Positions 2,308 through 64,000 of a stretch of DNA of 64,000 nucleotides are shown here, piece after piece. Location: assembly GCF_023055435.1 (NCBI RefSeq), contig NW_025964223.1, forward strand, positions 49,662,001 to 49,726,000. Reading direction: 5' to 3'. A program made the translations under genes and the position numbers. The notes below the pieces were generated by a model. That model was not told the origin of the DNA and ran no database searches. It worked only from the letters and a program-made list of their open reading frames with translations. Source of the stretch: Haliotis rufescens (Eukaryota). Within the stretch, counting starts at the first letter, position 1, and each line of letters starts with the position of its first letter.

Positions 2308-2332
2308 TAGCTAAAGTTTGCCGACAAGCATT

Positions 2333-35684: not shown

Positions 35685-35694
35685 GACAAGCATT

Positions 35695-41708: not shown

Positions 41709-41828
41709 GTCTACGGCCATACCACGTTGAAAACACCGGTTCTCGTCCGATCACCGAAGTTAAGCAACGTCGGGCCCGGAGAGTACTTGGATGGGTGACC
41801 GCCTGGGAACACCGGGTGCAGTAGACAT
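41709..41828 (+). rRNA. 5S: 5S rRNA
   Basis: As 2333..2452. Confidence 0.99.
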
Positions 41829-42804
41829 TTTTGCTGTGCGATTCCCACTTTTTTTCCTTTTTCGACCATAAGGTGCACTTGCCTCATTCACATCTGATGT
41901 AATCATACACTTTTATTTCCTTGTAAATGGCCCCACTCATGCATGTCTGCTCAAAGACATAGCTGCCAGCCATGTATTCTTACATACCTTTACAGAAAGG
42001 AATTTTCCACTATACATGTGATCATATTCAGTTGTCAGTTCACCCAACTCGTCAACTATTCTGAAGGCATGTACGTCCTTTTCGCCACATAAAGGTGTTT
42101 GCGTGCACCGATAATTGACTATTTTACTTACTTTCTTACTTTCAAAGCATGAATATATAATATATACATGTAAAATTATAATGTTGTTCGTGTTAAGTCT
42201 CGGCTCACATCTCTTTGCCTACACAGATAAGAAAAGGAGAAAGAGTTAGATCGTACAGAGCGCCTGTCAATAGGAGTTCACTGGCTTGCTGCTGGAAAAT
42301 GTATTTTGAAAGCTGTGAGCAAGCTGATCACTGTTGACACGCTTTAAAAATATGAAAAAAAAACGACGCGACTGTGTGATAAACCAGCTATTTTATGTTC
42401 CCCGTTCTAGCTGATCGCTGGCAAACGTACTTTAGACTTATTAGAAAGTATTTCCATACATTTCTCTCGCCATACAACAGGTAGATGTGACATGTTGCAG
42501 GTAGGGGGCTAGGCGAAACGCACACGACCAAGGGCGCACAACTCTTGGCGCTCTATTTGAAAAGTCGTGCACAGGCGAGGCGTGTGTCGGTAAAACACCC
42601 CGTGGATGTCTGGCCTTTATCGCCGTTTTACACCTTTGAACACAACGTGCATGTGCAGCTACACACATAGGAAGTCTGCACTCAGGATATTATATATATC
42701 AACGACACTAATCGCCTCACTTTCCAACATACACCCATTTGGGGGGTTAATAAACAAGCATAACAACAGTCATTAGTGTGAAGACACACTACCCCACCCC
42801 CCCA

Positions 42805-42853
<49 letters not shown>

Positions 42854-43085
42854 AATAAAATCCCTGACATACCTTTATCAACATCACCTATGTGTGTTAT
42901 GTGCGTGGTGGGTGTTGCTGCCACGTTATCTCTGTTATCACGAGAACCTGCACTTTATTACTGCTAATATACATATTTATTGTTTTGTTATCAGTGTTTT
43001 CAAGTTTTCTTTTGGGGTATTTGGATGGCCCTGAAAAGGGCCTTTGGACCACAGAAATGTGGAGCGAAGGCGTGACAATGAGAGC

Positions 43086-43649
43086 TTAAGCCTTCTTTGG
43101 CTTGACTGCCTTCTTCTTGGGGGTCTTGACCTTCTTGGGTTTGGCTGCTGCCTTCTTGGGTGTCTTCGCCTTCTTGGGCTTGGCTGCAGCCTTCACCTTC
43201 TTTGGTGACTTAGCGGCCTTCTTAGCGGCTGTTTTGGGTTTCTTGGCAGCAGCTGGCTTCTTGACTTTCTTGGGGGATTTGGCAGCCTTCTTTGGTTTGG
43301 CAGCTGCCTTAGCCTTCTTGGGTTTTTCGTCTTTCTTTGCCTCGCCAAGACGGAATGATCCAGCGGCTCCAGTTCCCTTTGATTGCTTCAGTGCGCCGTT
43401 CTTGACTCCATTTTTCAAAGCAGTCTTGATGCGAGCATTGATGGCCACCTGGTTGTCACCAACCTTGTAGTTGGCCAAGATGTATTTCAGAACAGCCTGT
43501 CGGGAAGAACCACCCCTCTCCTTCAGGGTTGAAATAGCTTTCTTGATCATCTCCAAATAGGTAGGATGTGCGGCAGCCTTCTTAGGCTTGGCAGCAGCCT
43601 TCTTCTTGGGAGTCTTGACAACAGCGGGGGCAGCAGCAGCATCAGCCAT
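43086..43649 (-). CDS. H1: Linker histone H1
   Basis: Same protein as 671..1234. Confidence 0.99.
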
Positions 43650-44747
43650 AGTGGTAAGTTTGAGTGGTAAAAATTCACGTCAGCTACGAGAGAAGCACAG
43701 AGAGCGAATGACACTTCCCCACAGACAGCCCGGCTGATACTCCGGAGGCGCGGACGTCGGAGGAGACACCCTGCTTGTTGTGGCTGATAGCTGCACGCTT
43801 ACAAGCGCGTGTGCTTTTTCGTGTATTTGTATCCGAATAATCACTTCTTAATCAAGGAAAGTTTCAATTTCAACAATACAGTTAGGTAGTAAAAACATTT
43901 GGCTACATTTCGGTTACAATAGCAACGCTCACGGGTGAAGTTCAAAGCCACACGTGCTGTTTCCAATGAAGCGACCCAGTCTAAAATGTAGACATCGCTA
44001 CTTTCAAAAGCACATTTTTAGCCTTGAGACTCAAGTTTATGCATTTTAAACGTTGCCTGTCAATTCTCAATATATCTAACTATGAAAGTAAAACACAACA
44101 CTCATCAGTATTGCCTATGATAAGCTAGAACAAGCTTTCAAACAACGACAATGAAGCACGTTTTTCTGACGACTTCGCCATTTTGCAACAGAAAACATTT
44201 GACACTATATTTCTGGAGACATAATTTTGGTCACTTCAATTAGAGTTGAAACTAACTTTGTCATAACAAGTAAGTAACGGGGATTTTACTTTCAGGAAAA
44301 CAGTCTAGTAAGACGAGGATCTCGGGACACAAGCAGCTAGGGCGCGAAGCCCCGAACAGTAACATATATACATTGGTGTTTAGATCACTCGATCGGTCGT
44401 CACAGATTAAGTCTTTTTGCCTGTCTTAATAGCACGATATTAGTAGGGGTCTTCGTCGTTTGGATGTTAATTTAACCAGAACAATATAGGCTACCATCCA
44501 TCAACGAAAAGTGAATGTTTCAGACGAAAGGCCGGATCGAGTGAGCGAGTGTGCCGGGCCTCGTGTTAAACAGTGATCACATGTTTTTAGAACGGCTAGA
44601 TTTTAATCCCTGTAAATATACATCATAAATCAACAAACACAACATGTCTACTGAACCCGCTGAAAACGCGAGCATGCTGTTTTCATGGCAATGTCTGTTT
44701 ACCAATGTGTGGTGGCTATATGTAGCTAAAGTTTGCCGACAAGCATT

Positions 44748-44867
44748 GTCTACGGCCATACCACGTTGAAAACACCGGTTCTCGTCCGATCACCGAAGTT
44801 AAGCAACGTCGGGCCCGGAGAGTACTTGGATGGGTGACCGCCTGGGAACACCGGGTGCAGTAGACAT
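44748..44867 (+). rRNA. 5S: 5S rRNA
   Basis: As 2333..2452. Confidence 0.99.
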
Positions 44868-46103
44868 TTTTGCTGTGCGATTCCCACTTTTTTTCCTTTT
44901 TCGACCATAAGGTGCACTTGCCTCATTCACATCTGATGTAATCATACACTTTTATTTCCTTGTAAATGGCCCCACTCATGCATGTCTGCTCAAAGACATA
45001 GCTGCCAGCCATGTATTCTTACATACCTTTACAGAAAGGAATTTTCCACTATACATGTGATCATATTCAGTTGTCAGTTCACCCAACTCGTCAACTATTC
45101 TGAAGGCATGTACGTCCTTTTCGCCACATAAAGGTGTTTGCGTGCACCGATAATTGACTATTTTACTTACTTTCTTACTTTCAAAGCATGAATATATAAT
45201 ATATACATGTAAAATTATAATGTTGTTCGTGTTAAGTCTCGGCTCACATCTCTTTGCCTACACAGATAAGAAAAGGAGAAAGAGTTAGATCGTACAGAGC
45301 GCCTGTCAATAGGAGTTCACTGGCTTGCTGCTGGAAAATGTATTTTGAAAGCTGTGAGCAAGCTGATCACTGTTGACACGCTTTAAAAATATGAAAAAAA
45401 AACGACGCGACTGTGTGATAAACCAGCTATTTTATGTTCCCCGTTCTAGCTGATCGCTGGCAAACGTACTTTAGACTTATTAGAAAGTATTTCCATACAT
45501 TTCTCTCGCCATACAACAGGTAGATGTGACATGTTGCAGGTAGGGGGCTAGGCGAAACGCACACGACCAAGGGCGCACAACTCTTGGCGCTCTATTTGAA
45601 AAGTCGTGCACAGGCGAGGCGTGTGTCGGTAAAACACCCCGTGGATGTCTGGCCTTTATCGCCGTTTTACACCTTTGAACACAACGTGCATGTGCAGCTA
45701 CACACATAGGAAGTCTGCACTCAGGATATTATATATATCAACGACACTAATCGCCTCACTTTCCAACATACACCCATTTGGGGGGTTAATAAACAAGCAT
45801 AACAACAGTCATTAGTGTGAAGACACACTACCCCACCCCCCCCATCCCCCCCCCCCCCCCCCCACACACACAATAAAATCCCTGACATACCTTTATCAAC
45901 ATCACCTATGTGTGTTATGTGCGTGGTGGGTGTTGCTGCCACGTTATCTCTGTTATCACGAGAACCTGCACTTTATTACTGCTAATATACATATTTATTG
46001 TTTTGTTATCAGTGTTTTCAAGTTTTCTTTTGGGGTATTTGGATGGCCCTGAAAAGGGCCTTTGGACCACAGAAATGTGGAGCGAAGGCGTGACAATGAG
46101 AGC

Positions 46104-46667
46104 TTAAGCCTTCTTTGGCTTGACTGCCTTCTTCTTGGGGGTCTTGACCTTCTTGGGTTTGGCTGCTGCCTTCTTGGGTGTCTTCGCCTTCTTGGGCTTG
46201 GCTGCAGCCTTCACCTTCTTTGGTGACTTAGCGGCCTTCTTAGCGGCTGTTTTGGGTTTCTTGGCAGCAGCTGGCTTCTTGACTTTCTTGGGGGATTTGG
46301 CAGCCTTCTTTGGTTTGGCAGCTGCCTTAGCCTTCTTGGGTTTTTCGTCTTTCTTTGCCTCGCCAAGACGGAATGATCCAGCGGCTCCAGTTCCCTTTGA
46401 TTGCTTCAGTGCGCCGTTCTTGACTCCATTTTTCAAAGCAGTCTTGATGCGAGCATTGATGGCCACCTGGTTGTCACCAACCTTGTAGTTGGCCAAGATG
46501 TATTTCAGAACAGCCTGTCGGGAAGAACCACCCCTCTCCTTCAGGGTTGAAATAGCTTTCTTGATCATCTCCAAATAGGTAGGATGTGCGGCAGCCTTCT
46601 TAGGCTTGGCAGCAGCCTTCTTCTTGGGAGTCTTGACAACAGCGGGGGCAGCAGCAGCATCAGCCAT
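46104..46667 (-). CDS. H1: Linker histone H1
   Basis: Same protein as 671..1234. Confidence 0.99.
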
Positions 46668-47765
46668 AGTGGTAAGTTTGAGTGGTAAAAATTCACGTCA
46701 GCTACGAGAGAAGCACAGAGAGCGAATGACACTTCCCCACAGACAGCCCGGCTGATACTCCGGAGGCGCGGACGTCGGAGGAGACACCCTGCTTGTTGTG
46801 GCTGATAGCTGCACGCTTACAAGCGCGTGTGCTTTTTCGTGTATTTGTATCCGAATAATCACTTCTTAATCAAGGAAAGTTTCAATTTCAACAATACAGT
46901 TAGGTAGTAAAAACATTTGGCTACATTTCGGTTACAATAGCAACGCTCACGGGTGAAGTTCAAAGCCACACGTGCTGTTTCCAATGAAGCGACCCAGTCT
47001 AAAATGTAGACATCGCTACTTTCAAAAGCACATTTTTAGCCTTGAGACTCAAGTTTATGCATTTTAAACGTTGCCTGTCAATTCTCAATATATCTAACTA
47101 TGAAAGTAAAACACAACACTCATCAGTATTGCCTATGATAAGCTAGAACAAGCTTTCAAACAACGACAATGAAGCACGTTTTTCTGACGACTTCGCCATT
47201 TTGCAACAGAAAACATTTGACACTATATTTCTGGAGACATAATTTTGGTCACTTCAATTAGAGTTGAAACTAACTTTGTCATAACAAGTAAGTAACGGGG
47301 ATTTTACTTTCAGGAAAACAGTCTAGTAAGACGAGGATCTCGGGACACAAGCAGCTAGGGCGCGAAGCCCCGAACAGTAACATATATACATTGGTGTTTA
47401 GATCACTCGATCGGTCGTCACAGATTAAGTCTTTTTGCCTGTCTTAATAGCACGATATTAGTAGGGGTCTTCGTCGTTTGGATGTTAATTTAACCAGAAC
47501 AATATAGGCTACCATCCATCAACGAAAAGTGAATGTTTCAGACGAAAGGCCGGATCGAGTGAGCGAGTGTGCCGGGCCTCGTGTTAAACAGTGATCACAT
47601 GTTTTTAGAACGGCTAGATTTTAATCCCTGTAAATATACATCATAAATCAACAAACACAACATGTCTACTGAACCCGCTGAAAACGCGAGCATGCTGTTT
47701 TCATGGCAATGTCTGTTTACCAATGTGTGGTGGCTATATGTAGCTAAAGTTTGCCGACAAGCATT

Positions 47766-47885
47766 GTCTACGGCCATACCACGTTGAAAACACCGGTTCT
47801 CGTCCGATCACCGAAGTTAAGCAACGTCGGGCCCGGAGAGTACTTGGATGGGTGACCGCCTGGGAACACCGGGTGCAGTAGACAT
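47766..47885 (+). rRNA. 5S: 5S rRNA
   Basis: As 2333..2452. Confidence 0.99.
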
Positions 47886-49112
47886 TTTTGCTGTGCGATT
47901 CCCACTTTTTTTCCTTTTTCGACCATAAGGTGCACTTGCCTCATTCACATCTGATGTAATCATACACTTTTATTTCCTTGTAAATGGCCCCACTCATGCA
48001 TGTCTGCTCAAAGACATAGCTGCCAGCCATGTATTCTTACATACCTTTACAGAAAGGAATTTTCCACTATACATGTGATCATATTCAGTTGTCAGTTCAC
48101 CCAACTCGTCAACTATTCTGAAGGCATGTACGTCCTTTTCGCCACATAAAGGTGTTTGCGTGCACCGATAATTGACTATTTTACTTACTTTCTTACTTTC
48201 AAAGCATGAATATATAATATATACATGTAAAATTATAATGTTGTTCGTGTTAAGTCTCGGCTCACATCTCTTTGCCTACACAGATAAGAAAAGGAGAAAG
48301 AGTTAGATCGTACAGAGCGCCTGTCAATAGGAGTTCACTGGCTTGCTGCTGGAAAATGTATTTTGAAAGCTGTGAGCAAGCTGATCACTGTTGACACGCT
48401 TTAAAAATATGAAAAAAAAACGACGCGACTGTGTGATAAACCAGCTATTTTATGTTCCCCGTTCTAGCTGATCGCTGGCAAACGTACTTTAGACTTATTA
48501 GAAAGTATTTCCATACATTTCTCTCGCCATACAACAGGTAGATGTGACATGTTGCAGGTAGGGGGCTAGGCGAAACGCACACGACCAAGGGCGCACAACT
48601 CTTGGCGCTCTATTTGAAAAGTCGTGCACAGGCGAGGCGTGTGTCGGTAAAACACCCCGTGGATGTCTGGCCTTTATCGCCGTTTTACACCTTTGAACAC
48701 AACGTGCATGTGCAGCTACACACATAGGAAGTCTGCACTCAGGATATTATATATATCAACGACACTAATCGCCTCACTTTCCAACATACACCCATTTGGG
48801 GGGTTAATAAACAAGCATAACAACAGTCATTAGTGTGAAGACACACTACCCCACCCCCCCATCCCCCCCCCCCCACACACAATAAAATCCCTGACATACC
48901 TTTATCAACATCACCTATGTGTGTTATGTGCGTGGTGGGTGTTGCTGCCACGTTATCTCTGTTATCACGAGAACCTGCACTTTATTACTGCTAATATACA
49001 TATTTATTGTTTTGTTATCAGTGTTTTCAAGTTTTCTTTTGGGGTATTTGGATGGCCCTGAAAAGGGCCTTTGGACCACAGAAATGTGGAGCGAAGGCGT
49101 GACAATGAGAGC

Positions 49113-49543
49113 TTAAGCCTTCTTTGGCTTGACTGCCTTCTTCTTGGGGGTCTTGACCTTCTTGGGTTTGGCTGCTGCCTTCTTGGGTGTCTTCGCCTTC
49201 TTGGGCTTGGCTGCAGCCTTCACCTTCTTTGGTGACTTAGCGGCCTTCTTAGCGGCTGTTTTGGGTTTCTTGGCAGCAGCTGGCTTCTTGACTTTCTTGG
49301 GGGATTTGGCAGCCTTCTTTGGTTTGGCAGCTGCCTTAGCCTTCTTGGGTTTTTCGTCTTTCTTTGCCTCGCCAAGACGGAATGATCCAGCGGCTCCAGT
49401 TCCCTTTGATTGCTTCAGTGCGCCGTTCTTGACTCCATTTTTCAAAGCAGTCTTGATGCGAGCATTGATGGCCACCTGGTTGTCACCAACCTTGTAGTTG
49501 GCCAAGATGTATTTCAGAACAGCCTGTCGGGAAGAACCACCCC
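49113..49543 (-). pseudogene. H1: H1 3' remnant cut off from its start by a LINE insertion at codon 45
   Basis: H1 sequence resumes at GGSSRQ directly after the (TAAG)n tail. Confidence 0.95.
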
Positions 49544-51398
49544 TTACTTACTTACTTATATTAGGAGATTTTACGTGCGCTTTCCGACTGGAGCGTATTT
49601 CGCACACGGGCCCGGCCGGGCCACTTAGTGGTATAAAAGTGGTAGCGAGAGGAGTGCAACCAAGGAGGGGGGTTTAGTGGTTGCTTATATAAAGTTTTGA
49701 AATTTTGAGATTTGGAATACATGCCTTGGGGGAGAGGTTGGGACTAAGGGAGTGTGTGGGGGTGAGTTGATGTTTTTTGGATGTTTAGTGTTGGTGGTTT
49801 AGTGAAGTTTTAAATACGGTTAATTAGTTCTGTTTTGGTTAGGTAACTGCCTAGGGCTTTGAAGTTTTCTATTTTATTTTGGGGGTTAAGGATTGCTTCT
49901 AAGGTAAGAGCGTTATTTGGATTTAGGTTGGTTTGTAATGTTGTACGTTGTGTGAGGTAGTGGGTGCAATGTAGTAGTACGTGGTCTATTGTTTCTGGGT
50001 GAGTGCAGTGTGGGCACTTCCCGTTTGCGTGTTTTTTTAATTTTAGAAGGTGGTTATTTAGTTTGGTGTGTCCTGTTTGGAGTTTGGTGATTATTCTATC
50101 GATTTTTTTGGAGGGATGGAGGATTTTTGGTTTGGTGAGGGGTTTTTTGAGGGTTTTTAGGATTTGGGTTTTTGTGTTTTGATAGAGGTTATGCCATTTT
50201 TGGGTGATTTTACGTTTGTTTATACTTTTGATTTCTGCTTTAGATATTGGTAGCTTAAGGCTTATGTCTGGTATTTTTAGGGATTGTTTTGCGGCTCTGT
50301 CTGCGTTTTCATTCCCGTAAATTCCTACGTGAGCTGGTATCCAGATAAGTTGTATGTTTTTGCCTGCCTCTGTTAGTTTGTTTACGCTTTTGAGAATTTG
50401 GTTTATTAATTTTGGGCGGTTTTTGGTGTTTTTGTTTTGGAGGGCCTGAAGTCCGCTTAGTGAGTCTGAGAGTATTAAGATTTTTTTTTGGTTTTTGGTG
50501 TGATGGCTGTGGAGCGCCGTGGCGATACCCATGAGCTCTGCGGTGAATATAGATTGGTTGTTTGGGAGTCGGAAGGATTGAGTATTTTTGACTGGTTGGG
50601 CTATATGGACTCCGAAACCTGTGTGATTTGTGATCGGATCAGCGGATCCGTCTGTGTATATGTGACACCAATTTGGCCATTTTTGATGGATGTAAGCTAG
50701 TGATGTGCTTTTAGCTAGGTTTGGGTCGGTTTGTTTGTTTATTATGTTGGCTAGGGATGTGTCTATTTTGGGGATTTTAAGTTTTGGGGTGAATACGTTT
50801 GATTGTTTGCAGTTTTGTTGTTGGTTTCCTATTTGGTGTTCGTTATGGTAGTTTATTATTCGTTGGGATATTGGGGTGAGTAGAGGGTGTTTTCTAGTTA
50901 GTGCCTGGTTTTGGGGACGTATGTTTTGGTTTAGCATGTTTTGGAGAAGGGGGTTTGATTGAGATGCTGCCCAGAAGTTTAGTGTTAAGTGTTGTCTACG
51001 TAAATTTAGTGGCATTTCTCCTGTAAGGGCCTGAAGTGATGTGAGGGAGGTGCCATGTTGAGTACGTGTTACTAGTTTGAGGGCTTGATATTGTATTGAA
51101 TCTAGTTTTTTGGTTAGGGTTTCGTTTAGGGTATCGTATATGGCACAGCCGTAGTCTAGTTTAGATCTGATTAGGGATGTGTAGAGGCTGAGGAGGGTAT
51201 CTTTAGAGGCTCCCCAGTTGGAGCCGGTTAGGCATCTTAGTGTGTTTAGATCTTTGCTACATCTGGTGGTTAGGTTTTGGACGTGAGCATCCCAGGAGAG
51301 ATGCTCGTCGAAGATTAGACCTAGGAATTTAGTTTGCTTTTGAAATATGATTGGTTTATTGTTTAGTTTGAGGAGAGGGGAGGCCCGTCTCATATTTT
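49544..51398 (-). mobile_element. 5'-truncated LINE copy (1,855 bp, subfamily A) in H1, no clear TSD
   Basis: Tail begins at 49544; 5' junction at 51398/51399; net insertion 1855 bp. Confidence 0.96.
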
Positions 51399-51531
51399 TC
51401 TCCTTCAGGGTTGAAATAGCTTTCTTGATCATCTCCAAATAGGTAGGATGTGCGGCAGCCTTCTTAGGCTTGGCAGCAGCCTTCTTCTTGGGAGTCTTGA
51501 CAACAGCGGGGGCAGCAGCAGCATCAGCCAT
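49810..51531 (-). CDS. Chimeric ORF: H1 residues 1-44 fused in frame to the LINE ORF2 C-terminus (RT thumb/tether, RNase H, CCHC), 573 aa
   Basis: Junction ...STLKE|KNMRRASP; no internal stops; keeps YTDGS, AEL, SDS, WIPAHVGIYGNENAD. Expression is not shown by sequence. Confidence 0.75.
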   Translation of the reverse strand: MADAAAAPAVVKTPKKKAAAKPKKAAAHPTYLEMIKKAISTLKEKNMRRASPLLKLNNKPIIFQKQTKFLGLIFDEHLSWDAHVQNLTTRCSKDLNTLRCLTGSNWGASKDTLLSLYTSLIRSKLDYGCAIYDTLNETLTKKLDSIQYQALKLVTRTQHGTSLTSLQALTGEMPLNLRRQHLTLNFWAASQSNPLLQNMLNQNIRPQNQALTRKHPLLTPISQRIINYHNEHQIGNQQQNCKQSNVFTPKLKIPKIDTSLANIINKQTDPNLAKSTSLAYIHQKWPNWCHIYTDGSADPITNHTGFGVHIAQPVKNTQSFRLPNNQSIFTAELMGIATALHSHHTKNQKKILILSDSLSGLQALQNKNTKNRPKLINQILKSVNKLTEAGKNIQLIWIPAHVGIYGNENADRAAKQSLKIPDISLKLPISKAEIKSINKRKITQKWHNLYQNTKTQILKTLKKPLTKPKILHPSKKIDRIITKLQTGHTKLNNHLLKLKKHANGKCPHCTHPETIDHVLLHCTHYLTQRTTLQTNLNPNNALTLEAILNPQNKIENFKALGSYLTKTELINRI

Positions 51532-52629
51532 AGTGGTAAGTTTGAGTGGTAAAAATTCACGTCAGCTACGAGAGAAGCACAGAGAGCGAATGACACTTCC
51601 CCACAGACAGCCCGGCTGATACTCCGGAGGCGCGGACGTCGGAGGAGACACCCTGCTTGTTGTGGCTGATAGCTGCACGCTTACAAGCGCGTGTGCTTTT
51701 TCGTGTATTTGTATCCGAATAATCACTTCTTAATCAAGGAAAGTTTCAATTTCAACAATACAGTTAGGTAGTAAAAACATTTGGCTACATTTCGGTTACA
51801 ATAGCAACGCTCACGGGTGAAGTTCAAAGCCACACGTGCTGTTTCCAATGAAGCGACCCAGTCTAAAATGTAGACATCGCTACTTTCAAAAGCACATTTT
51901 TAGCCTTGAGACTCAAGTTTATGCATTTTAAACGTTGCCTGTCAATTCTCAATATATCTAACTATGAAAGTAAAACACAACACTCATCAGTATTGCCTAT
52001 GATAAGCTAGAACAAGCTTTCAAACAACGACAATGAAGCACGTTTTTCTGACGACTTCGCCATTTTGCAACAGAAAACATTTGACACTATATTTCTGGAG
52101 ACATAATTTTGGTCACTTCAATTAGAGTTGAAACTAACTTTGTCATAACAAGTAAGTAACGGGGATTTTACTTTCAGGAAAACAGTCTAGTAAGACGAGG
52201 ATCTCGGGACACAAGCAGCTAGGGCGCGAAGCCCCGAACAGTAACATATATACATTGGTGTTTAGATCACTCGATCGGTCGTCACAGATTAAGTCTTTTT
52301 GCCTGTCTTAATAGCACGATATTAGTAGGGGTCTTCGTCGTTTGGATGTTAATTTTACCAGAACAATATAGGCTACCATCCATCAACGAAAAGTGAATGT
52401 TTCAGACGAAAGGCCGGATCGAGTGAGCGAGTGTGCCGGGCCTCGTGTTAAACAGTGATCACATGTTTTTAGAACGGCTAGATTTTAATCCCTGTAAATA
52501 TACATCATAAATCAACAAACACAACATGTCTACTGAACCCGCTGAAAACGCGAGCATGCTGTTTTCATGGCAATGTCTGTTTACCAATGTGTGGTGGCTA
52601 TATGTAGCTAAAGTTTGCCGACAAGCATT

Positions 52630-52749
52630 GTCTACGGCCATACCACGTTGAAAACACCGGTTCTCGTCCGATCACCGAAGTAAAGCAACGTCGGGCCCGG
52701 AGAGTACTTGGATGGGTGACCGCCTGGGAACACCGGGTGCAGTAGACAT
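52630..52749 (+). rRNA. 5S: 5S rRNA (T53A in box A)
   Basis: GAAGTAAAGC in place of GAAGTTAAGC at 52682. Confidence 0.95.
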
Positions 52750-53974
52750 TTTTGCTGTGCGATTCCCACTTTTTTTCCTTTTTCGACCATAAGGTGCACT
52801 TGCCTCATTCACATCTGATGTAATCATACACTTTTATTTCCTTGTAAATGGCCCCACTCATGCATGTCTGCTCAAAGACATAGCTGCCAGCCATGTATTC
52901 TTACATACCTTTACAGAAAGGAATTTTCCACTATACATGTGATCATATTCAGTTGTCAGTTCACCCAACTCGTCAACTATTCTGAAGGCATGTACGTCCT
53001 TTTCGCCACATAAAGGTGTTTGCGTGCACCGATAATTGACTATTTTACTTACTTTCTTACTTTCAAAGCATGAATATATAATATATACATGTAAAATTAT
53101 AATGTTGTTCGTGTTAAGTCTCGGCTCACATCTCTTTGCCTACACAGATAAGAAAAGGAGAAAGAGTTAGATCGTACAGAGCGCCTGTCAATAGGAGTTC
53201 ACTGGCTTGCTGCTGGAAAATGTATTTTGAAAGCTGTGAGCAAGCTGATCACTGTTGACACGCTTTAAAAATATGAAAAAAAAACGACGCGACTGTGTGA
53301 TAAACCAGCTATTTTATGTTCCCCGTTCTAGCTGATCGCTGGCAAACGTACTTTAGACTTATTAGAAAGTATTTCCATACATTTCTCTCGCCATACAACA
53401 GGTAGATGTGACATGTTGCAGGTAGGGGGCTAGGCGAAACGCACACGACCAAGGGCGCACAACTCTTGGCGCTCTATTTGAAAAGTCGTGCACAGGCGAG
53501 GCGTGTGTCGGTAAAACACCCCGTGGATGTCTGGCCTTTATCGCCGTTTTACACCTTTGAACACAACGTGCATGTGCAGCTACACACATAGGAAGTCTGC
53601 ACTCAGGATATTATATATATCAACGACACTAATCGCCTCACTTTCCAACATACACCCATTTGGGGGGTTAATAAACAAGCATAACAACAGTCATTAGTGT
53701 GAAGACACACTACCCCACCCCCCCATCCCCCCCCACACACACAATAAAATCCCTGACATACCTTTATCAACATCACCTATGTGTGTTATGTGCGTGGTGG
53801 GTGTTGCTGCCACGTTATCTCTGTTATCACGAGAACCTGCACTTTATTACTGCTAATATACATATTTATTGTTTTGTTATCAGTGTTTTCAAGTTTTCTT
53901 TTGGGGTATTTGGATGGCCCTGAAAAGGGCCTTTGGACCACAGAAATGTGGAGCGAAGGCGTGACAATGAGAGC

Positions 53975-54405
53975 TTAAGCCTTCTTTGGCTTGACTGCCT
54001 TCTTCTTGGGGGTCTTGACCTTCTTGGGTTTGGCTGCTGCCTTCTTGGGTGTCTTCGCCTTCTTGGGCTTGGCTGCAGCCTTCACCTTCTTTGGTGACTT
54101 AGCGGCCTTCTTAGCGGCTGTTTTGGGTTTCTTGGCAGCAGCTGGCTTCTTGACTTTCTTGGGGGATTTGGCAGCCTTCTTTGGTTTGGCAGCTGCCTTA
54201 GCCTTCTTGGGTTTTTCGTCTTTCTTTGCCTCGCCAAGACGGAATGATCCAGCGGCTCCAGTTCCCTTTGATTGCTTCAGTGCGCCGTTCTTGACTCCAT
54301 TTTTCAAAGCAGTCTTGATGCGAGCATTGATGGCCACCTGGTTGTCACCAACCTTGTAGTTGGCCAAGATGTATTTCAGAACAGCCTGTCGGGAAGAACC
54401 ACCCC
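53975..54405 (-). pseudogene. H1: H1 3' remnant (duplicate of 49113..49543)
   Basis: Same junction, offset 4862 bp. Confidence 0.95.
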
Positions 54406-56260
54406 TTACTTACTTACTTATATTAGGAGATTTTACGTGCGCTTTCCGACTGGAGCGTATTTCGCACACGGGCCCGGCCGGGCCACTTAGTGGTATAAAA
54501 GTGGTAGCGAGAGGAGTGCAACCAAGGAGGGGGGTTTAGTGGTTGCTTATATAAAGTTTTGAAATTTTGAGATTTGGAATACATGCCTTGGGGGAGTGGT
54601 TGGGACTAAGGGAGTGTGTGGGGGTGAGTTGATGTTTTTTGGATGTTTAGTGTTGGTGGTTTAGTGAAGTTTTAAATACGGTTAATTAGTTCTGTTTTGG
54701 TTAGGTAACTGCCTAGGGCTTTGAAGTTTTCTATTTTATTTTGGGGGTTAAGGATTGCTTCTAAGGTAAGAGCGTTATTTGGATTTAGGTTGGTTTGTAA
54801 TGTTGTACGTTGTGTGAGGTAGTGGGTGCAATGTAGTAGTACGTGGTCTATTGTTTCTGGGTGAGTGCAGTGTGGGCACTTCCCGTTTGCGTGTTTTTTT
54901 AATTTTAGAAGGTGGTTATTTAGTTTGGTGTGTCCTGTTTGGAGTTTGGTGATTATTCTATCGATTTTTTTGGAGGGATGGAGGATTTTTGGTTTGGTGA
55001 GGGGTTTTTTGAGGGTTTTTAGGATTTGGGTTTTTGTGTTTTGATAGAGGTTATGCCATTTTTGGGTGATTTTACGTTTGTTTATACTTTTGATTTCTGC
55101 TTTAGATATTGGTAGCTTAAGGCTTATGTCTGGTATTTTTAGGGATTGTTTTGCGGCTCTGTCTGCGTTTTCATTCCCGTAAATTCCTACGTGAGCTGGT
55201 ATCCAGATAAGTTGTATGTTTTTGCCTGCCTCTGTTAGTTTGTTTACGCTTTTGAGAATTTGGTTTATTAATTTTGGGCGGTTTTTGGTGTTTTTGTTTT
55301 GGAGGGCCTGAAGTCCGCTTAGTGAGTCTGAGAGTATTAAGATTTTTTTTTGGTTTTTGGTGTGATGGCTGTGGAGCGCCGTGGCGATACCCATGAGCTC
55401 TGCGGTGAATATAGATTGGTTGTTTGGGAGTCGGAAGGATTGAGTATTTTTGACTGGTTGGGCTATATGGACTCCGAAACCTGTGTGATTTGTGATCGGA
55501 TCAGCGGATCCGTCTGTGTATATGTGACACCAATTTGGCCATTTTTGATGGATGTAAGCTAGTGATGTGCTTTTAGCTAGGTTTGGGTCGGTTTGTTTGT
55601 TTATTATGTTGGCTAGGGATGTGTCTATTTTGGGGATTTTAAGTTTTGGGGTGAATACGTTTGATTGTTTGCAGTTTTGTTGTTGGTTTCCTATTTGGTG
55701 TTCGTTATGGTAGTTTATTATTCGTTGGGATATTGGGGTGAGTAGAGGGTGTTTTCTAGTTAGTGCCTGGTTTTGGGGACGTATGTTTTGGTTTAGCATG
55801 TTTTGGAGAAGGGGGTTTGATTGAGATGCTGCCCAGAAGTTTAGTGTTAAGTGTTGTCTACGTAAATTTAGTGGCATTTCTCCTGTAAGGGCCTGAAGTG
55901 ATGTGAGGGAGGTGCCATGTTGAGTACGTGTTACTAGTTTGAGGGCTTGATATTGTATTGAATCTAGTTTTTTGGTTAGGGTTTCGTTTAGGGTATCGTA
56001 TATGGCACAGCCGTAGTCTAGTTTAGATCTGATTAGGGATGTGTAGAGGCTGAGGAGGGTATCTTTAGAGGCTCCCCAGTTGGAGCCGGTTAGGCATCTT
56101 AGTGTGTTTAGATCTTTGCTACATCTGGTGGTTAGGTTTTGGACGTGAGCATCCCAGGAGAGATGCTCGTCGAAGATTAGACCTAGGAATTTAGTTTGCT
56201 TTTGAAATATGATTGGTTTATTGTTTAGTTTGAGGAGAGGGGAGGCCCGTCTCATATTTT
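54406..56260 (-). mobile_element. Duplicate of the 1,855-bp LINE insertion in the next H1
   Basis: Identical junctions; one difference seen (49735 A vs 54597 T). Confidence 0.96.
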
Positions 56261-56393
56261 TCTCCTTCAGGGTTGAAATAGCTTTCTTGATCATCTCCAA
56301 ATAGGTAGGATGTGCGGCAGCCTTCTTAGGCTTGGCAGCAGCCTTCTTCTTGGGAGTCTTGACAACAGCGGGGGCAGCAGCAGCATCAGCCAT
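54672..56393 (-). CDS. Second copy of the H1(1-44)/ORF2 RNase H chimeric ORF, 573 aa
   Basis: Same translation as 49810..51531. Confidence 0.75.
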   Translation of the reverse strand: MADAAAAPAVVKTPKKKAAAKPKKAAAHPTYLEMIKKAISTLKEKNMRRASPLLKLNNKPIIFQKQTKFLGLIFDEHLSWDAHVQNLTTRCSKDLNTLRCLTGSNWGASKDTLLSLYTSLIRSKLDYGCAIYDTLNETLTKKLDSIQYQALKLVTRTQHGTSLTSLQALTGEMPLNLRRQHLTLNFWAASQSNPLLQNMLNQNIRPQNQALTRKHPLLTPISQRIINYHNEHQIGNQQQNCKQSNVFTPKLKIPKIDTSLANIINKQTDPNLAKSTSLAYIHQKWPNWCHIYTDGSADPITNHTGFGVHIAQPVKNTQSFRLPNNQSIFTAELMGIATALHSHHTKNQKKILILSDSLSGLQALQNKNTKNRPKLINQILKSVNKLTEAGKNIQLIWIPAHVGIYGNENADRAAKQSLKIPDISLKLPISKAEIKSINKRKITQKWHNLYQNTKTQILKTLKKPLTKPKILHPSKKIDRIITKLQTGHTKLNNHLLKLKKHANGKCPHCTHPETIDHVLLHCTHYLTQRTTLQTNLNPNNALTLEAILNPQNKIENFKALGSYLTKTELINRI

Positions 56394-57265
56394 AGTGGTA
56401 AGTTTGAGTGGTAAAAATTCACGTCAGCTACGAGAGAAGCACAGAGAGCGAATGACACTTCCCCACAGACAGCCCGGCTGATACTCCGGAGGCGCGGACG
56501 TCGGAGGAGACACCCTGCTTGTTGTGGCTGATAGCTGCACGCTTACAAGCGCGTGTGCTTTTTCGTGTATTTGTATCCGAATAATGGAACGAGGAAATAG
56601 AACAAACTAGGAAAAAACGTAAATCAGCCTTCAATAAAGCCAAACGCGACCATAATCACATACCGGTAGCTCACCAACTAAACCACCAAGTCCAAACACT
56701 AGTCAAAATAGCAAAAACCAGAGACTGGAAAAAATTCTGCGAGGGACTAAATAATCGCACAGATGCCAGAACAGTCTGGCGCAAAATCCACGCCGTCAGA
56801 GGCTTAAAAAAACAAAAAAAAACGCCTAACATAAACAACTCAAATACTCCCAGCGAAAAAGCAAATAACCTAGCAAACCACTTTTCGGCAATAAGTAGCA
56901 ATAACAACTTCAGCCATAAATTCAAACAAAAACTCCAGGCAGAAACCAAACCTATCCAAGAACCAAACAATAACAACCTAGAAATAAACCAACCGTACAC
57001 AATAGAAGAACTAAACCACGTACTTCAAAATAGGAAAAAAGGAACAGCCCCAGGTCTAGACTTAACTTCCTACCAAATAATCAAAAAACTCCCGCCCAAA
57101 CTACTCCAGTCACTACTAAAACTCTATAATCTAATTTATCTAAACGGCCAGGTTCCAAATCCTTGGAAAGAAGCTCTCATTATCCCCATCCCTAAACCCG
57201 GTAAACCAGCCAACCAAGCCAACTCCTATAGGCCAATATCGCTCACCTCTAACCTATGCAAAGTA

Positions 57266-59446
57266 ATGGAATCCATGGCAAAAAATAGACTCCAACACTA
57301 CTTAACCCAAAATAATATAATTAATTCAGACCAAAGCGGTTTTACTCCCGGCCGCTCAACCCTAGATAACCTAGCACGTCTAGAACAGGATATTAAAACA
57401 GGACAACTAAATAAACAATATACTACAGGCATCTTTCTGGACTTTTCCAAAGCCTTCGATATGGTATGGCACAACGGGCTAATCCAAAAACTTAAAAAAA
57501 TAGGACTAAAAGGTCAAATCATAAACTACATCCAAAGTTTCCTTAAAAACCGTAAAATCACAGTGGGTATAGACCAGGCCTTGTCGGACCAGTGTCCACT
57601 AGAAAACGGCACACCCCAAGGCAGCATTCTTAGCCCCACACTATTCAACATAATGATAAACGATCTCTTTGATGGCTTATCCCCTAAAATAAATACTTCC
57701 AAATTTGCAGATGACGGAGCCCTCTGGATCCGTTCTAAAAGTATTTTAACATCCCAGGACTTACTCCAGAAATCACTAAACAAAATACAACAATGGGCCG
57801 ATAAATGGGGGTTCTCCCTAAACACTGAAAAAACCACAGGAATAGTATTTAAACATAAAAATATGACACGGGCCACCCCCACCCTTAAACTAAACAACAA
57901 ACCAATCCAATTTCAGAAACAAACTAAATTCTTAGGACTAATATTCGACGAACATCTCTCCTGGGATGCCCACGTCCAAAACCTAACCACAAGATGTAGC
58001 AAAGATTTAAACACACTAAGATGTCTAACCGGCTCCAACTGGGGTGCCTCTAAAGATACCCTCCTCAGCCTCTATACATCCCTAATCAGATCCAAACTAG
58101 ACTACGGCTGTGCCATATACGATACCTTAAACGAAACATTAACCAAAAAACTAGATTCAATCCAATACCAAGCCCTCAAATTAGTCACACGTACCCAACA
58201 AGGCACCTCCCTTACGTCACTTCAGGCCCTCACAGGAGAAATGCCGCTAAACCTACGTAGGCAACACTTAACACTAAACTTCTGGGCAGCTTCTCAATCA
58301 AACCCTCTTCTACAAAATCTCCTAAACCTAAACATACGTCCCAAAAACCAGGCACTAACTAGGAAACACCCTCTACTCACTCCAATTTCCCAACGTATTA
58401 TAAACTACCGCAACGAACACCAAATAGGGAACCTACAACAAAACTGCAAAAAATCCAACGTATTCACCCCAAAACTTAAAATCCCCAAAATAGACACTTC
58501 CCTAGCCAAAACAATAAACAAACAAACTGACCCTAACATAGCTAAATCCACCTCACTAGCCTACATACATCAAAACTGGCCAAATTGGTGCCACATCTAC
58601 ACAGATGGATCTGCTGATCCATTCACAAATCACACAGGTTTCGGAGTCCACATAGCCCAACCAATAAGAAATACGCAATCCTTCCGACTCCCAAACAACA
58701 AATCTATCTTCACCGCAGAACTCATGGGTATCGCCACGGCCCTCCACAGCCATCACACTAAAAACCAAAATAAAATCCTAATACTCTCAGACTCACTAAG
58801 TGGACTCCAGGCCCTCCAAAGCAAAAACACCAAAAACCGCCCCAAATTAATAAACCAAATTCTCAAAAGTATAGATAAATTAACAGAGGCAGGCAAAAAC
58901 ATAGTACTCACCTGGATACCAGCCCACGTAGGAATATACGGTAATGAGAACGCCGACCAAGCCGCTAAACAGTCCCTAAAAATACCAGAGATAAGCCTTA
59001 AGCTACCAATAAGTAAATCAGAGATCAAAAGTATCAACAAACACAAAATCACCCAAAAATGGCATAGCCTCTATCAAAACACAAACACCCAAATCATAAA
59101 AGTCCTCAAAAAACCCCTTACCAAACCAAAAATCCTCCATCCATCCAAAAAAATCGATAGAATAATCACCAAACTCCAAACAGGACACACCAAACTAAAT
59201 AACCATCTTCTAAAACTAAAAAAACACGCAAACGGGAAGTGTCCACACTGCACTCACCCAGAAACCATAGACCACGTACTACTACATTGCACCCACTACC
59301 TCATCCAACGTACAACATTACAAACCAACCTAAATCCAAATAAAGCTCTTACCTTAGAAGCAATCCTCAACCCCCAAAATAAAATAGAAAACTTCAAAGC
59401 CCTAGGCATTTACCTAACCAAAACAGACCTAATTAATCGTATCTAA
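57266..59446 (+). pseudogene. Truncated ORF2 of subfamily B (RT, RNase H, CCHC), frame open
   Basis: 726 aa, colinear with 33238..35418 with mostly conservative substitutions. Confidence 0.85.
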
Positions 59447-59599
59447 AAATTCACTAAACCACCAACACTAAACATCTAAAAACAACAACTCACCCCCACA
59501 CACTCCCTTAGTCCCAACCACTCCCCCAAGGCATGTCTTCCAAATCTCAAAATTTCAAAACTTTATATAAGCAACCACTAAACCCCCCTCCTTCCCTTT

Positions 59600-61252
59600 T
59601 GTCATTATGTGGGCTTTTAGTGTTTGGAGATTACGATTTTGGTTTGGTTTTTGGTTTATAGTCCTGCGATTGCTAGGTTGTAACTATCGTAGAATTCTTG
59701 GTAGGTTTGGGTAGTTAGATTTAGTCTATGTGCTACCTGGTGTAGGTTAGTGGCTTTAAGGTCTGGTTTGATTTCTTTAAGCATGTATACTAGTAGGAGT
59801 GTGAAGCTATTTAGTTTGGTGGTTAAAGTTTCGGGTTCAGGTTGAGTTTGGGGTTTGCGTTTGCGATTTTTCAGGGTTTTGGGGGCTGAAAATGTTTTAT
59901 CATTTATGTTTTGATCAGTTGTGGTTTGGGAGTCATCTAGGTTAATTAGATTGGTTTCCTCACTATCCATGGGAGTTGTGTGGGTGTTTGGTTGTGTTGG
60001 AGTAGGTGTACTGGGTATTTCAATGGGTTTAGTAATGTTTAGTTTTTCGTGTGTTGCTTGCTCGTGTGTGGTTGTTGTTGCCCTGGTGGCTGTAGATTGT
60101 ATGGTGTTGGGGTGAGATATGGTAGGTTTAGTGAGTTTTGGTTTAGGTGCGGGTGTGGATGCGGCGACTGGTTTGGGTGTGGCGAATGTTGGCGGGTAGT
60201 GTTGGGTTTGGGTGTTTGTGGCTGATGCTTGTGGTGTTGGCATGAGGACGCCGTCGTACGGGCTCTGTAGGTGTGGTTGGTTGTTTGGTTGTGGTGTGGG
60301 TAGTAGGGGTGTTCTTGGATGCTGTGTCAGTTTTCGTGTTTGTAGTTTGGCCGAGTCGATGTTTATGTGTCGGTTGGCCTGTTGGGTGAGTGTGTGTTTG
60401 TGGGGGCATTTGTTGGATAGTGAGGAGTGGGTGTTTGTTTTGCAGTGAATGCACCAGGGGGCGCATGGCCCTAGACATTGAGGTTGAGCGCAGTTTCTAC
60501 ATTTAGTTTTTTGATATTTACATCCGTTAGCGGTGTGATTGTATTGGAGGCAGTTTGTGCACTGTTTGACTTGTTTGATATAGGGTTTAACTTCTAATTT
60601 AGATGACGCTCCGAAGGAGATGTGTTTAGGGGCTTCTGGATACGTTTCTGATTTTTGGAAGTTTATGATGACTATCGGTGTGTTGGTTATTCTACCGTTC
60701 CTATTTGATGTAATTCTTTTAGTGCTGGTTATTTTAGGTTGGGGGAAGGAGCCTGTGTTTAGATTTGCTTCGTTACTGTAGAATTCTAGGTCCTCCTCTG
60801 ACTCTCTAGGGTTTACTCTAATTACTCCTCTAGTGTATAGTTGCCAGTTTGGGGTTTGGTGGGTTACTGTGTATTGAAATATTTCCGTTATTTTTTTGGC
60901 TGCGTTAAGTGATTGTTGGTCCGGAAAGATGATCTGAAATCCTTTGTGGGCTTCCCTGATTTTATCGAAGAGTATTTGTTGTTTTTTAAAGAATGATCCT
61001 ACTTTATTGGCGGAGAGTACCTTACTTAGGATGTTTATGGGGCCAGCCGCGCAGAAGTAGAGGGCGAAGGTGACTATAGATGCGGGGGTGGAAGGTGATG
61101 CAGGTGTTGTGTTTGAAGCATTTAGCTTCCGTTTCTTTGGGTTTGTTGTGGTTGCAGGCGAATCCGGAGTTTTGGTGGGAGAAGCGACTGTGGTTTGCTT
61201 TCCGAATTCGTGCGGGATGAGGGTTTCAGGTGTCCGATCGGAGGTGTTGTGG
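59600..61252 (-). mobile_element. Inverted LINE fragment: ORF1 from about codon 24 through the first two codons of ORF2
   Basis: Colinear with 20211-21863 at a constant offset of 39389; two substitutions noticed; no tail or TSD. Confidence 0.93.
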
Positions 61253-61378
61253 TTGCACTCTTCTCGCTTCCCCTTTTATATCACTAAATGGCCCGGCCGG
61301 GCCCGTGTGCGAAATACGCTCCAGTCGGAAAGCGCACGTAAAATCCCCTAATATAAGTAAGTAAGTAAGACAAGCATT

Positions 61379-61498
61379 GTCTACGGCCATACCACGTTGA
61401 AAATACCGGTTCTCGTCCGATCACCGAAGTTAAGCAACGTCGGGCCCGGAGAGTACTTGGATGGGTGACCGCCTGGGAACACCGGGTGCAGTAGACAT
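61379..61498 (+). rRNA. 5S: 5S rRNA (C26T variant), 10 bp downstream of a LINE tail
   Basis: GAAAATACCGG at 61404; otherwise as 2333..2452. Confidence 0.97.
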
Positions 61499-62722
61499 TT
61501 TTGCTGTGCGATTCCCACTTTTTTTCTTTTTCGACCATAAGGTGCACTTGCCTCATTCACATCTGATGTAATCATACACTTTTATTTCCTTGTAAATGGC
61601 CCCACTCATGCATGTCTGCTCAAAGACATAGCTGCCAGCCATGTATTCTTACATACCTTTACAGAAAGGAATTTTCCACTATACATGTGATCATATTCAG
61701 TTGTCAGTTCACCCAACTCGTCAACTATTCTGAAGGCATGTACGTCCTTTTCGCCACATAAAGGTGTTTGCGTGCACCGATAATTGACTATTTTACTTAC
61801 TTTCTTACTTTCAAAGCATGAATATATAATATATACATGTAAAATTATAATGTTGTTCGTGTTAAGTCTCGGCTCACATCTCTTTGCCTACACAGATAAG
61901 AAAAGGAGAAAGAGTTAGATCGTACAGAGCGCCTGTCAATAGGAGTTCACTGGCTTGCTGCTGGAAAATGTATTTTGAAAGCTGTGAGCAAGCTGATCAC
62001 TGTTGACACGCTTTAAAAATATGAAAAAAAAACGACGCGACTGTGTGATAAACCAGCTATTTTATGTTCCCCGTTCTAGCTGATCGCTGGCAAACGTACT
62101 TTAGACTTATTAGAAAGTATTTCCATACATTTCTCTCGCCATACAACAGGTAGATGTGACATGTTGCAGGTAGGGGGCTAGGCGAAACGCACACGACCAA
62201 GGGCGCGCAACTCTTGGCGCTCTATTTGAAAAGTCGTGCACAGGCGAGGCGTGTGTCGGTAAAACACCCCGTGGATGTCTGGCCTTTATCGCCGTTTTAC
62301 ACCTTTGAACACAACGTGCATGTGCAGCTACACACATAGGAAGTCTGCACTCAGGATATTATATATATCAACGACACTAATCGCCTCACTTTCCAACATA
62401 CACCCATTTGGGGGGTTAATAAACAAGCATAACAACAGTCATTAGTGTGAAGACACACTACCCCACCCCCCCATCCCCCCCCACACACACAATAAAATCC
62501 CTGACATACCTTTATCAACATCACCTATGTGTGTTATGTGCGTGGTGGGTGTTGCTGCCACGTTATCTCTGTTATCACGAGAACCTGCACTTTATTACTG
62601 CTAATATACATATTTATTGTTTTGTTATCAGTGTTTTCAAGTTTTCTTTTGGGGTATTTGGATGGCCCTGAAAAGGGCCTTTGGACCACAGAAATGTGGA
62701 GCGAAGGCGTGACAATGAGAGC

Positions 62723-63286
62723 TTAAGCCTTCTTTGGCTTGACTGCCTTCTTCTTGGGGGTCTTGACCTTCTTGGGTTTGGCTGCTGCCTTCTTGGGCGT
62801 CTTCGCCTTCTTGGGCTTGGCTGCAGCCTTCACCTTCTTTGGTGACTTAGCGGCCTTCTTAGCGGCTGTTTTGGGTTTCTTGGCAGCAGCTGGCTTCTTG
62901 ACTTTCTTGGGGGATTTGGCAGCCTTCTTTGGTTTGGCAGCTGCCTTAGCCTTCTTGGGTTTTTCGTCTTTCTTTGCCTCGCCAAGACGGAATGATCCAG
63001 CGGCTCCAGTTCCCTTTGATTGCTTCAGTGCGCCGTTCTTGACTCCATTTTTCAAAGCAGTCTTGATGCGAGCATTGATGGCCACCTGGTTGTCACCAAC
63101 CTTGTAGTTGGCCAAGATGTATTTCAGAACAGCCTGTCGGGAAGAACCACCCCTCTCCTTCAGGGTTGAAATAGCTTTCTTGATCATCTCCAAATAGGTA
63201 GGATGTGCGGCAGCCTTCTTAGGCTTGGCAGCAGCCTTCTTCTTGGGAGTCTTGACAACAGCGGGGGCAGCAGCAGCATCAGCCAT
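62723..63286 (-). CDS. H1: Linker histone H1
   Basis: Same protein as 671..1234. Confidence 0.99.
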
Positions 63287-64000
63287 AGTGGTAAGTTTGA
63301 GTGGTAAAAATTCACGTCAGCTACGAGAGAAGCACAGAGAGCGAATGACACTTCCCCACAGACAGCCCGGCTGATACTCCGGAGGCGCGGACGTCGGAGG
63401 AGACACCCTGCTTGTTGTGGCTGATAGCTGCACGCTTACAAGCGCGTGTGCTTTTTCGTGTATTTGTATCCGAATATAATCACTTCTTAATCAAGGAAAG
63501 TTTCAATTTCAACAATACAGTTAGGTAGTAAAAACATTTGGCTACATTTCGGTTACAATAGCAACGCTCACGGGTGAAGTTCAAAGCCACACGTGCTGTT
63601 TCCAATGAAGCGACCCAGTCTAAAATGTAGACATCGCTACTTTCAAAAGCACATTTTTAGCCTTGAGACTCAAGTTTATGCATTTTAAACGTTGCCTGTC
63701 AATTCTCAATATATCTAACTATGAAAGTAAAACACAACACTCATCAGTATTGCCTATGATAAGCTAGAACAAGCTTTCAAACAACGACAATGAAGCACGT
63801 TTTTCTGACGACTTCGCCATTTTGCAACAGAAAACATTTGACACTATATTTCTGGAGACATAATTTTGGTCACTTCAATTAGAGTTGAAACTAACTTTGT
63901 CATAACAAGTAAGTAACGGGGATTTTACTTTCAGGAAAACAGTCTAGTAAGACGAGGATCTCGGGACACAAGCAGCTAGGGCGCGAAGCCCCGAACAGTA

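Follow-up and report, generated by a model that had tools for sequence, protein, structure and literature searches.

The H1–5S array and its LINE copies

The window examined here is a 64 000-nucleotide stretch of the Haliotis rufescens genome (assembly GCF_023055435.1, contig NW_025964223.1, positions 49,662,001–49,726,000 of the forward strand). It lies within a tandem array whose unit carries a histone H1 gene and a 5S rRNA gene, and it is interrupted by copies of a long interspersed nuclear element (LINE), two of which are joined in frame to the 5' part of H1. This report concerns the placement of the LINE relative to transcription start sites, of which the fusion frame is likely to be a by-product. 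The array spans approximately 49.354 to 49.837 Mb of G000:C445 (0.48 Mb) and holds about 104 full-length H1 matches (99 + 3 + 2). Its unit consists of H1 and 5S only, without core histone genes. No H1–5S unit was found in the literature; in brine shrimp and mussels, 5S genes are described as linked to entire histone quartets or quintets (PMC13525598; here and below, cited sources are represented by their accessible portions).

The LINE has two open reading frames (ORFs), the second of which encodes APE, reverse transcriptase (RT) and RNase H domains in that order followed by a C-terminal CCHC finger, and it ends in a tandem-repeat (TAAG)n tail. By this anatomy it is assigned to the I group, the APE-type LINEs for which RNase H is recorded (clades I, Nimb, Ingi, Loa, Tad1, R1, Loner and Outcast; PMC4640811). 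Target duplications of 8–13 bp and 5' truncations joined by microhomology are further features in common with that group; at least seven duplicated bases are present at 55 of 82 dispersed sites, with a mode of 11, near the 10–13 bp expected from Nimb-2_DR. The closest named relative is a protein from Haliotis asinina (40%), the 185 database relatives include no named clade references, and no relative turned up when JGI metagenome contigs were searched with the ORF2 C-terminus. Folding of the element 3' end indicated no significant stability (z 0.14). The genome contains 154 young 3' ends, and sister subfamilies account for 2372 more.

A preliminary description of the window, made from its sequence alone, had reported two 573-residue frames in which a truncated LINE joins H1 at codon 44. 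Both frames are present, on the minus strand and with identical proteins, and in each of them H1 codons 1–44 are followed by ORF2 from residue 725 (Table 1), the junction being a single shared A, a 1-nt microhomology. As described, the APE domain and the RT FADD motif (ORF2 residues 674–677) are absent, while the D/E/D/D motifs of RNase H and the CCHC finger are retained; the LINE part comprises the end of the RT, the thumb/tether, RNase H (Pfam PF00075, residues 290–417 of the fusion protein, E = 1e-18) and CCHC. The H1 3' remnant and its stem-loop do lie 3' of the (TAAG)n tail in both units. Three statements need qualification. Of the H1 tail and first helix ascribed to the protein, the N-tail is kept but the globular domain (28–102) is reduced to 17 of its 75 residues. 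The promoter, 5' untranslated region (UTR) and ATG are fully intact for the first copy only, since the second retains 192 bp of host sequence upstream of the ATG, beyond which the spacer is replaced by another LINE copy. Finally, the two fusion units have the same junctions and represent one insertion event, duplicated locally. The copies differ at one of 1856 element bases and at six positions in the 5189-bp duplicated segment; at one of these six positions the array itself is polymorphic (21 versus 75 units), so the duplication is probably real rather than an assembly artefact. The insertion itself has a target duplication of 0–1 bp, against the family mode of 11.

Table 1. Features of the window (positions counted from its first base)
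Feature	Position	Strand	Basis
Tandem array of 3007-bp unit, H1 (minus) and 5S rRNA (plus)	1..64000	.	Sequence comparison
Copy A, full-length 6228-bp element, sense in H1 at ~+145, 10-bp target duplication	16188..22415	-	ORFs, Pfam
Copy A ORF2, APE-RT-RNase H-CCHC	16455-20216	-	ORF, Pfam
Copy A ORF1	20267-21931	-	ORF
Near-palindromic TATA-like box, -31..-24 of 5S gene, now 31 bases 5' of the first base of copy B	32599..32606	+	Sequence
Copy B, 5'-truncated, sense; target duplication is -10 to -1 of the 5S gene at 35695	32630..35684	+	
Histone 3' stem-loop, unit C	49029..49074	-	Rfam RF00032
H1 3' remnant behind insert C	49113..49544	-	Sequence
Insert C, 5'-truncated LINE, element bases 4372-6228, (TAAG)n tail; sense in H1, ~+193 from putative start	49544..51399	-	Sequence
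Fusion ORF copy C, H1 codons 1-44 + LINE ORF2 residues 725-1253, 573 aa	49810..51531	-	ORF, Pfam
Initiator-like hexamer, putative H1 start 60 nt 5' of ATG	51588..51593	-	Consensus-inferred, sequence
Histone 3' stem-loop, unit D	53891..53936	-	Rfam RF00032
H1 3' remnant behind insert D	53975..54406	-	Sequence
Insert D, duplicate of insert C	54406..56261	-	1 difference in 1856 bases
Fusion ORF copy D, protein identical to copy C, 573 aa	54672..56393	-	ORF
Copy E/F, of a sister subfamily (90% to copy A); end at -10 relative to the 5S gene at 61379	56585..61368	+	

Inside the 3' UTR of copy E/F lies 1.65 kb of ORF1 from the young subfamily, in inverted orientation (59600–61252), and on the 5' side of the copy the array unit lacks about 900 bp. 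Elsewhere in the array, unrelated elements lie inside 5S genes, at about +17 and +55 (G000:C445:49398813-49407404 and 49474040-49476783; loci L064–L065 and L032).

Placement of the lineage relative to start sites

Three small-gene arrays hold 45 of the 154 young 3' ends: 17 in the H1–5S array, 14 in U1 arrays and 14 in an array of a U1-like mini gene (mini-U1), the last count being 13 plus L120, which automatic classification had placed among the dispersed copies. The flank analysis took in 152 of the 154. By a rough size estimate (909 U1 and 904 mini genes) these arrays make up about 0.13% of the genome, an enrichment of approximately 220-fold; because duplicates occur among the array copies, the number of independent events is below 45.

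Within the arrays the LINE lineage is placed at defined positions and, for the most part, in sense orientation. A sample of U1 arrays totalling 320 kb and 253 genes contains 12 tailed inserts of the lineage; every one is sense and has its end at -10/-9, and their 5' ends differ. Host DNA is kept exactly to -1 in eight of them, which puts the first base of the element at +1. One of the 12 belongs to a relative (67%) whose tail is (CAA)n, and a thirteenth copy, lacking its 3' part, also begins at +1. Before mini-U1 genes, 16 of 16 inserts are sense, 11 at about -8 and five at 0, the latter being duplicates of one event with a common 5' end; the inserts come from subfamilies that are 80–99.8% alike. 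The H1–5S array contributes 19 distinct non-nested events (nested copies and three unrelated inserts excluded). Seven are sense inserts at -10/-9 of 5S genes, from subfamilies 67–99.9% alike and with two tail types. A common site at -55..-45, which mirrors the sense site about the near-palindromic TATA-like box at -31..-24, is occupied by two antisense inserts from different subfamilies, and one further antisense insert lies at -7. At H1, seven distinct sense sites are used and no antisense site: -12, -3, +16, +32, +57, +145 (copy A) and +193 (the fusion), as counted from the putative initiator 60 nt before the ATG. The remaining two events are at one site in the H1–5S spacer with an AATAAAA box 31 bases upstream. 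At U1, mini-U1 and 5S genes the 3' end of the element adjoins host position -11 to -9 and its 5' end usually host position -1, and the RNA-coding part is left whole.

The dispersed copies number 110, with the 5' junction covered in 82. A strict TATA box is found at -38..-16 in 20 of these 82 (two of the 20 being duplicates of one site), compared with seven of 328 control windows nearby and 55 of 3098 far away (about 2%), and in 19 of the 20 it begins at -32..-29. A distance of 29–32 bases is canonical between TATA box and start for polymerase II. A second set was drawn from an independent, genome-wide pattern search over all subfamilies, in which the first 100 of 397 matches gave 43 flanks after duplicates were collapsed and 41 after one element-internal match and one discovery site were dropped. 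Among these first 100 matches listed, a TATA box lies 29–33 bases before the insert in 26 of 41 flanks, out of 31 possible spacings (p about 1e-11), or in 24 of 41 under the other rule for nested boxes, with p < 1e-9. An initiator motif follows the tail by 4–12 bases in eight of 105 cases, compared with 2.2% (p 0.002), and one 66-nt insert is located between the TATA box and the initiator of a β-tubulin gene (L197). The same TATA spacing is found where the box lies within a tRNA-derived short interspersed nuclear element (SINE) or within a tandem repeat (L223, L211, L233 and L198), and at least ten copies adjoin the 5' region of other LINEs. The share of sites with a TATA box is 12 of 28 for 66-nt inserts versus eight of 54 for longer ones, in line with what purging of long inserts from single-copy promoters would produce.

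No target consensus emerged over 22 positions in 105 flanks, and the U1, mini-U1, 5S, H1 and dispersed targets differ from one another, in place of a single conserved target sequence of the R1 or Tx1 type. The idea of a single-sequence target in the H1–5S array was abandoned. Targeting of tRNA-type promoters was not found: scans of 99 loci found no adjacent tRNA gene (two tRNA calls are about 0.9 kb away), and a genome-wide A-box search returned four matches with no common spacing. Beside the non-array copies, Rfam identified no family in the subset of loci scanned, and no core-histone motif is present within 2.5 kb downstream of dispersed copies, where the β-tubulin start was the only one found.

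The mini gene is about 76 nt in length (e.g. L159:586-662) and occurs in a tandem array with a 379-bp unit and 904 exact matches (L101–L110, L120 and L153–L160; G000:C46:19.37–19.64 Mb and 20.65 Mb). It consists of the U1 5' arm joined directly to a sequence resembling the U1 3' half, apparently without stem-loops 1 and 2, and has in common with true U1 genes a 15-nt motif resembling a proximal element (51 versus 53 nt upstream) and a 3'-box-like stretch. It has no Rfam match even at an E value of 10, its folding shows no significant stability (z -0.63), and no abbreviated U1 gene was found in the literature; it is possibly an abbreviated U1 paralogue with the copy number of U1 itself. In the U1 arrays (L121–L152), a distant RT element (26% to ORF2) is also frequently inserted, in lengths of 5.8 kb and 2.1 kb and with the sequence upstream of U1 intact; we take it to be possibly a Tx1-like U1-array family.

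Several arrangements were seen among the dispersed copies. In 28 of the 110, only the last 50–80 nt of the element are present (e.g. L094, L197, L208, L222 and L233), most of these beginning at base 6160–6167, directly behind a GC-rich palindrome; such inserts are candidates for a promoterless micro-retroposon or for the product of a reverse-transcriptase stop. The family and its relatives are stacked head-to-tail at the 5' regions of other LINEs (L074–L082, C1:42.3–42.45 Mb; L183, L184, L207 and L112), an arrangement consistent with targeting of the internal promoters of those LINEs. Six copies (L010, L086, L100, L117, L118 and L219) cluster within a few bases in one dispersed repeat. Just behind one start-site insert, motifs that we take to be a hammerhead-like core are present (L199:7030-7080), with no Rfam match at the gathering score.

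A proposed docking on the initiation complex

The targets have no common sequence, and hence it is position, not sequence, that is read. Selection cannot explain the pattern, since promoters are the costliest places to disrupt and the 2-kb spacer is nearly empty. Combined with target-primed reverse transcription, the placement leads to a nick in the template strand near -11/-10 and one in the other strand at -1/+1. We consider it likely that the fusion frame is a by-product of an I-group LINE that is placed at start sites, mostly in sense orientation, probably through a TBP-containing initiation complex of the polymerase II type.

In the proposed mechanism, the ribonucleoprotein (RNP) of the LINE would dock on this complex, a step about which we are evenly divided, and docking would set the first nick approximately 20 bp behind the TBP site. 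A complex of the polymerase II type is suggested because U1 genes, which lack a TATA box, nevertheless show the same geometry, because the 5S box is used in both directions, and because a TATA box in a SINE body suffices while tRNA genes are spared. With the first base of the element in the place of host +1, the host promoter would transcribe the element. Promoter capture at the first base could in turn allow a promoterless 66-nt 3' fragment to spread, which would explain the 28 short copies among the 110. At H1 the docking would be looser, trailing into the first 200 transcribed bases, and at the far end of this trail one 5'-truncated copy may have joined H1 codon 44 in frame by chance. The fusion would then have been duplicated with its array unit by unequal crossover.

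A number of points weigh against this proposal. A strict TATA box is missing at 62 of the 82 dispersed sites, so that the preference is strong but not absolute, and no tRNA-type promoter is targeted, contrary to what a plain TBP/TFIIIB tether predicts. The H1 sites scatter across 200 bases, in contrast to the sharply defined sites at U1 and 5S genes, and the 5S antisense insert at -7 does not fit. Start sites other than the +1 of U1 and 5S derive from consensus motifs, tail microhomology of 1–3 nt may set the exact base at U1 and mini-U1, and an 11-bp duplication is normal for relatives (about 12 bp in Nimb-2_DR; PMC4245944), so that only the first nick holds positional information. The evidence comes from one genome, and the protein contact is one that we infer.

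The same placement might also be produced without a protein tether, by cutting at the upstream edge of the melted transcription bubble of an open or paused polymerase. The extent of the open-complex bubble matches nicks at -11/-10 and -1/+1. Three promoter types are found among the targets, and the sense trail in H1 from +16 to +193 fits a promoter-proximal polymerase, and fits it better than docking. Against the bubble, the mirroring of two 5S sites about one TATA-like box and the use of SINE and tandem-repeat TATA boxes at the same spacing suggest that bound TBP is enough; tRNA genes form bubbles too, yet are not targeted. The length of the duplication is, moreover, intrinsic to the clade as far as it is described (PMC4245944). 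On this evidence cutting at the bubble is the main alternative to docking, if a somewhat doubtful one.

A preference for open chromatin, with tail microhomology and array homogenization but without real positional targeting, is very unlikely. It has a precedent in the weak promoter preference of the Drosophila I-element (PMC10018349), and it agrees with the tail matches at U1 and mini-U1 and with the duplicate nature of some array copies, such as the five mini-U1 inserts with one 5' end. It does not predict that 5' ends would differ while host DNA stays exact to -1, that several subfamilies and tail types would converge on a single base or that strand bias would be near-complete, and a peak of 4–5 bases in TATA spacing at unrelated single-copy sites, seen in both TATA sets, largely refutes it. 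Guidance by RNA, in which the (UAAG)n tail, a 5' splice-site consensus, would pair with the 5' arm of nascent U1 or U1-like RNA, is scarcely credible and is rejected as the rule: the arm complementary to the tail is common to U1 and the mini gene, and 28 of the 154 young copies lie at one or the other, but a relative with a (CAA)n tail uses the same U1 site, the 5S and H1 sites are shared by relatives whose tails are TATC, TCAG and TGAC, and the 5S, H1 and TATA sites have no such arm. Tail–U1 pairing may contribute to the U1 share.

Docking on an initiation complex has its closest parallel in elements that are position-specific at polymerase III genes through contact with TFIIIB/TBP, namely Ty3 and Tj1 of yeasts and the dictyostelid TRE5-A and NLTR-A/B (PMC5911963). 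Ty3 inserts 1–4 bp from the start and TRE5-A 40–54 bp upstream in opposite orientation, to which the antisense 5S site at -55..-45 may be compared, and 5S genes are among their targets. Like the present lineage, Ty3 and TRE5-A read position rather than sequence and keep a fixed distance and orientation to the start. However, they are limited to polymerase III genes, chiefly tRNA genes, whereas this lineage uses polymerase II small nuclear RNA (snRNA), TATA and histone promoters, with no tRNA gene among the copies seen; Ty3 is a long terminal repeat element and TRE5 belongs to the L1 clade, and the LINE is a member of neither. The Tx1-clade Keno (U2) and 5S/U5 families, Utopia, R2 and Dada-U1 (PMC4494074, PMC4640811, PMC8869645) similarly build up in small-RNA gene arrays at one base per target, but they recognize one conserved sequence inside the gene, while this family lies in front of several unrelated genes. 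Tx1 and R1 are the only target-specific APE clades named in the accessible text of PMC4640811. Within the I group, Nimb-2_DR forms duplications of about 12 bp and microhomology joins, with no target preference described in the part of the source available (PMC4245944). De novo insertions of the Drosophila I-element lean to active promoters, about twofold and some 150 bp upstream, with no strand bias and with depletion among germline copies (PMC10018349); the present lineage is instead base-precise and strand-biased, and this in inherited copies. No target rule is described for mollusc LINEs and SINEs in the accessible text of PMC11203168 and PMC11481361. A literature search found no LINE with base-precise targeting of polymerase II start sites (Repbase Reports and most subscription papers lie outside its coverage). 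A start-site-targeting LINE is well supported in this one genome and appears to be undescribed.

The fusion frame and its significance

In the preliminary description, the fusion was viewed as a possible nascent chimeric gene for a nuclear RNase H under the histone promoter, which could act on R-loops or interfere with the LINE RNP. In its full form this reading implies that an H1-tail/RNase H protein is translated and favoured by selection. That description had not taken into account that the family inserts in sense orientation at or just behind start sites, which makes H1 5' fusions an expected by-product. The frame is open, all RNase H motifs are intact, and the basic tail could import the protein. 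An H1 promoter and a stem-loop are in place, transcription from the H1 promoter is plausible, and there are two copies in a duplication that is probably genuine; two units in about 106 could still yield 1–2% of the H1 mRNA of the array. Host–transposon chimeric genes such as SETMAR likewise join a host 5' part in frame to a transposon enzyme domain.

Such genes are old, fixed, expressed and under selection, unlike the H1 fusion, which is a single very recent event without observed spread in the array or in other genomes. The caution in the preliminary description that the copies are very young and selection is not shown proved well placed: the fusion is 99.5% identical to full-length copy A, with two amino-acid and three silent changes, and for one event at this divergence an intact frame is expected and is uninformative on selection. 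Its estimate that one join in three would be in frame by chance also agrees with the array, where one of three independent sense inserts at or in the H1 coding start has a long frame, the other two having frames of 39 and 10 residues. A count across the array gives two fusion units against the approximately 104 intact H1 genes, and duplication is not peculiar to them, as other insert-bearing units are also duplicated (28 kb at 49.55/49.58 Mb). The whole junction is matched only by the two copies in the window (40 scored of 227 genome candidates), and an H1-like N-terminus is absent from the 185 database relatives of the LINE (lengths 315–2193 residues only). Histone mRNA control requires a stop codon near the stem-loop; in the fusion, 781 nt separate the stop from the end of the stem-loop match, compared with 84 in normal H1, and no polyadenylation hexamer occurs between the two. 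Sense LINE RNA would presumably be a target of PIWI-interacting RNAs, and the same RNase H is already encoded by full-length copies, LINE ORF2 itself being under purifying selection between subfamilies (pN 0.03, pS 0.31). No histone–RNase H fusion was found in the literature. Nothing thus supports a functional chimeric gene, which we regard as very unlikely; the fusion mRNA would probably be low-level and without a selected role.

Among known target-specific LINEs, R1, R2 and Tx1 read DNA sequence, and those of amoebae read the polymerase III complex of tRNA genes. It is for us an even call that, taken jointly, the LINE lineage recognizes the initiation complex of the polymerase II type itself and thereby places its own first base at host +1 in snRNA, TATA, histone and 5S promoters, that the captured promoters sustain a promoterless 66-nt micro-element and keep making host–LINE fusions such as H1–RNase H, and that this behaviour is common to subfamilies down to 67% identity. 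If this is correct, sense and base-precise finding of polymerase II start sites would represent a third targeting rule for LINEs and would give a direct handle on the choice of nick by an APE-type RNP. It would explain the spread of very short promoterless retroposons, insertions would flag active germline promoters in an unannotated genome, and the lineage would offer a starting point for promoter-directed insertion tools. It would also constitute a steady route to host–transposon fusion frames, of which the H1–RNase H frame is a fresh and so far unselected example.

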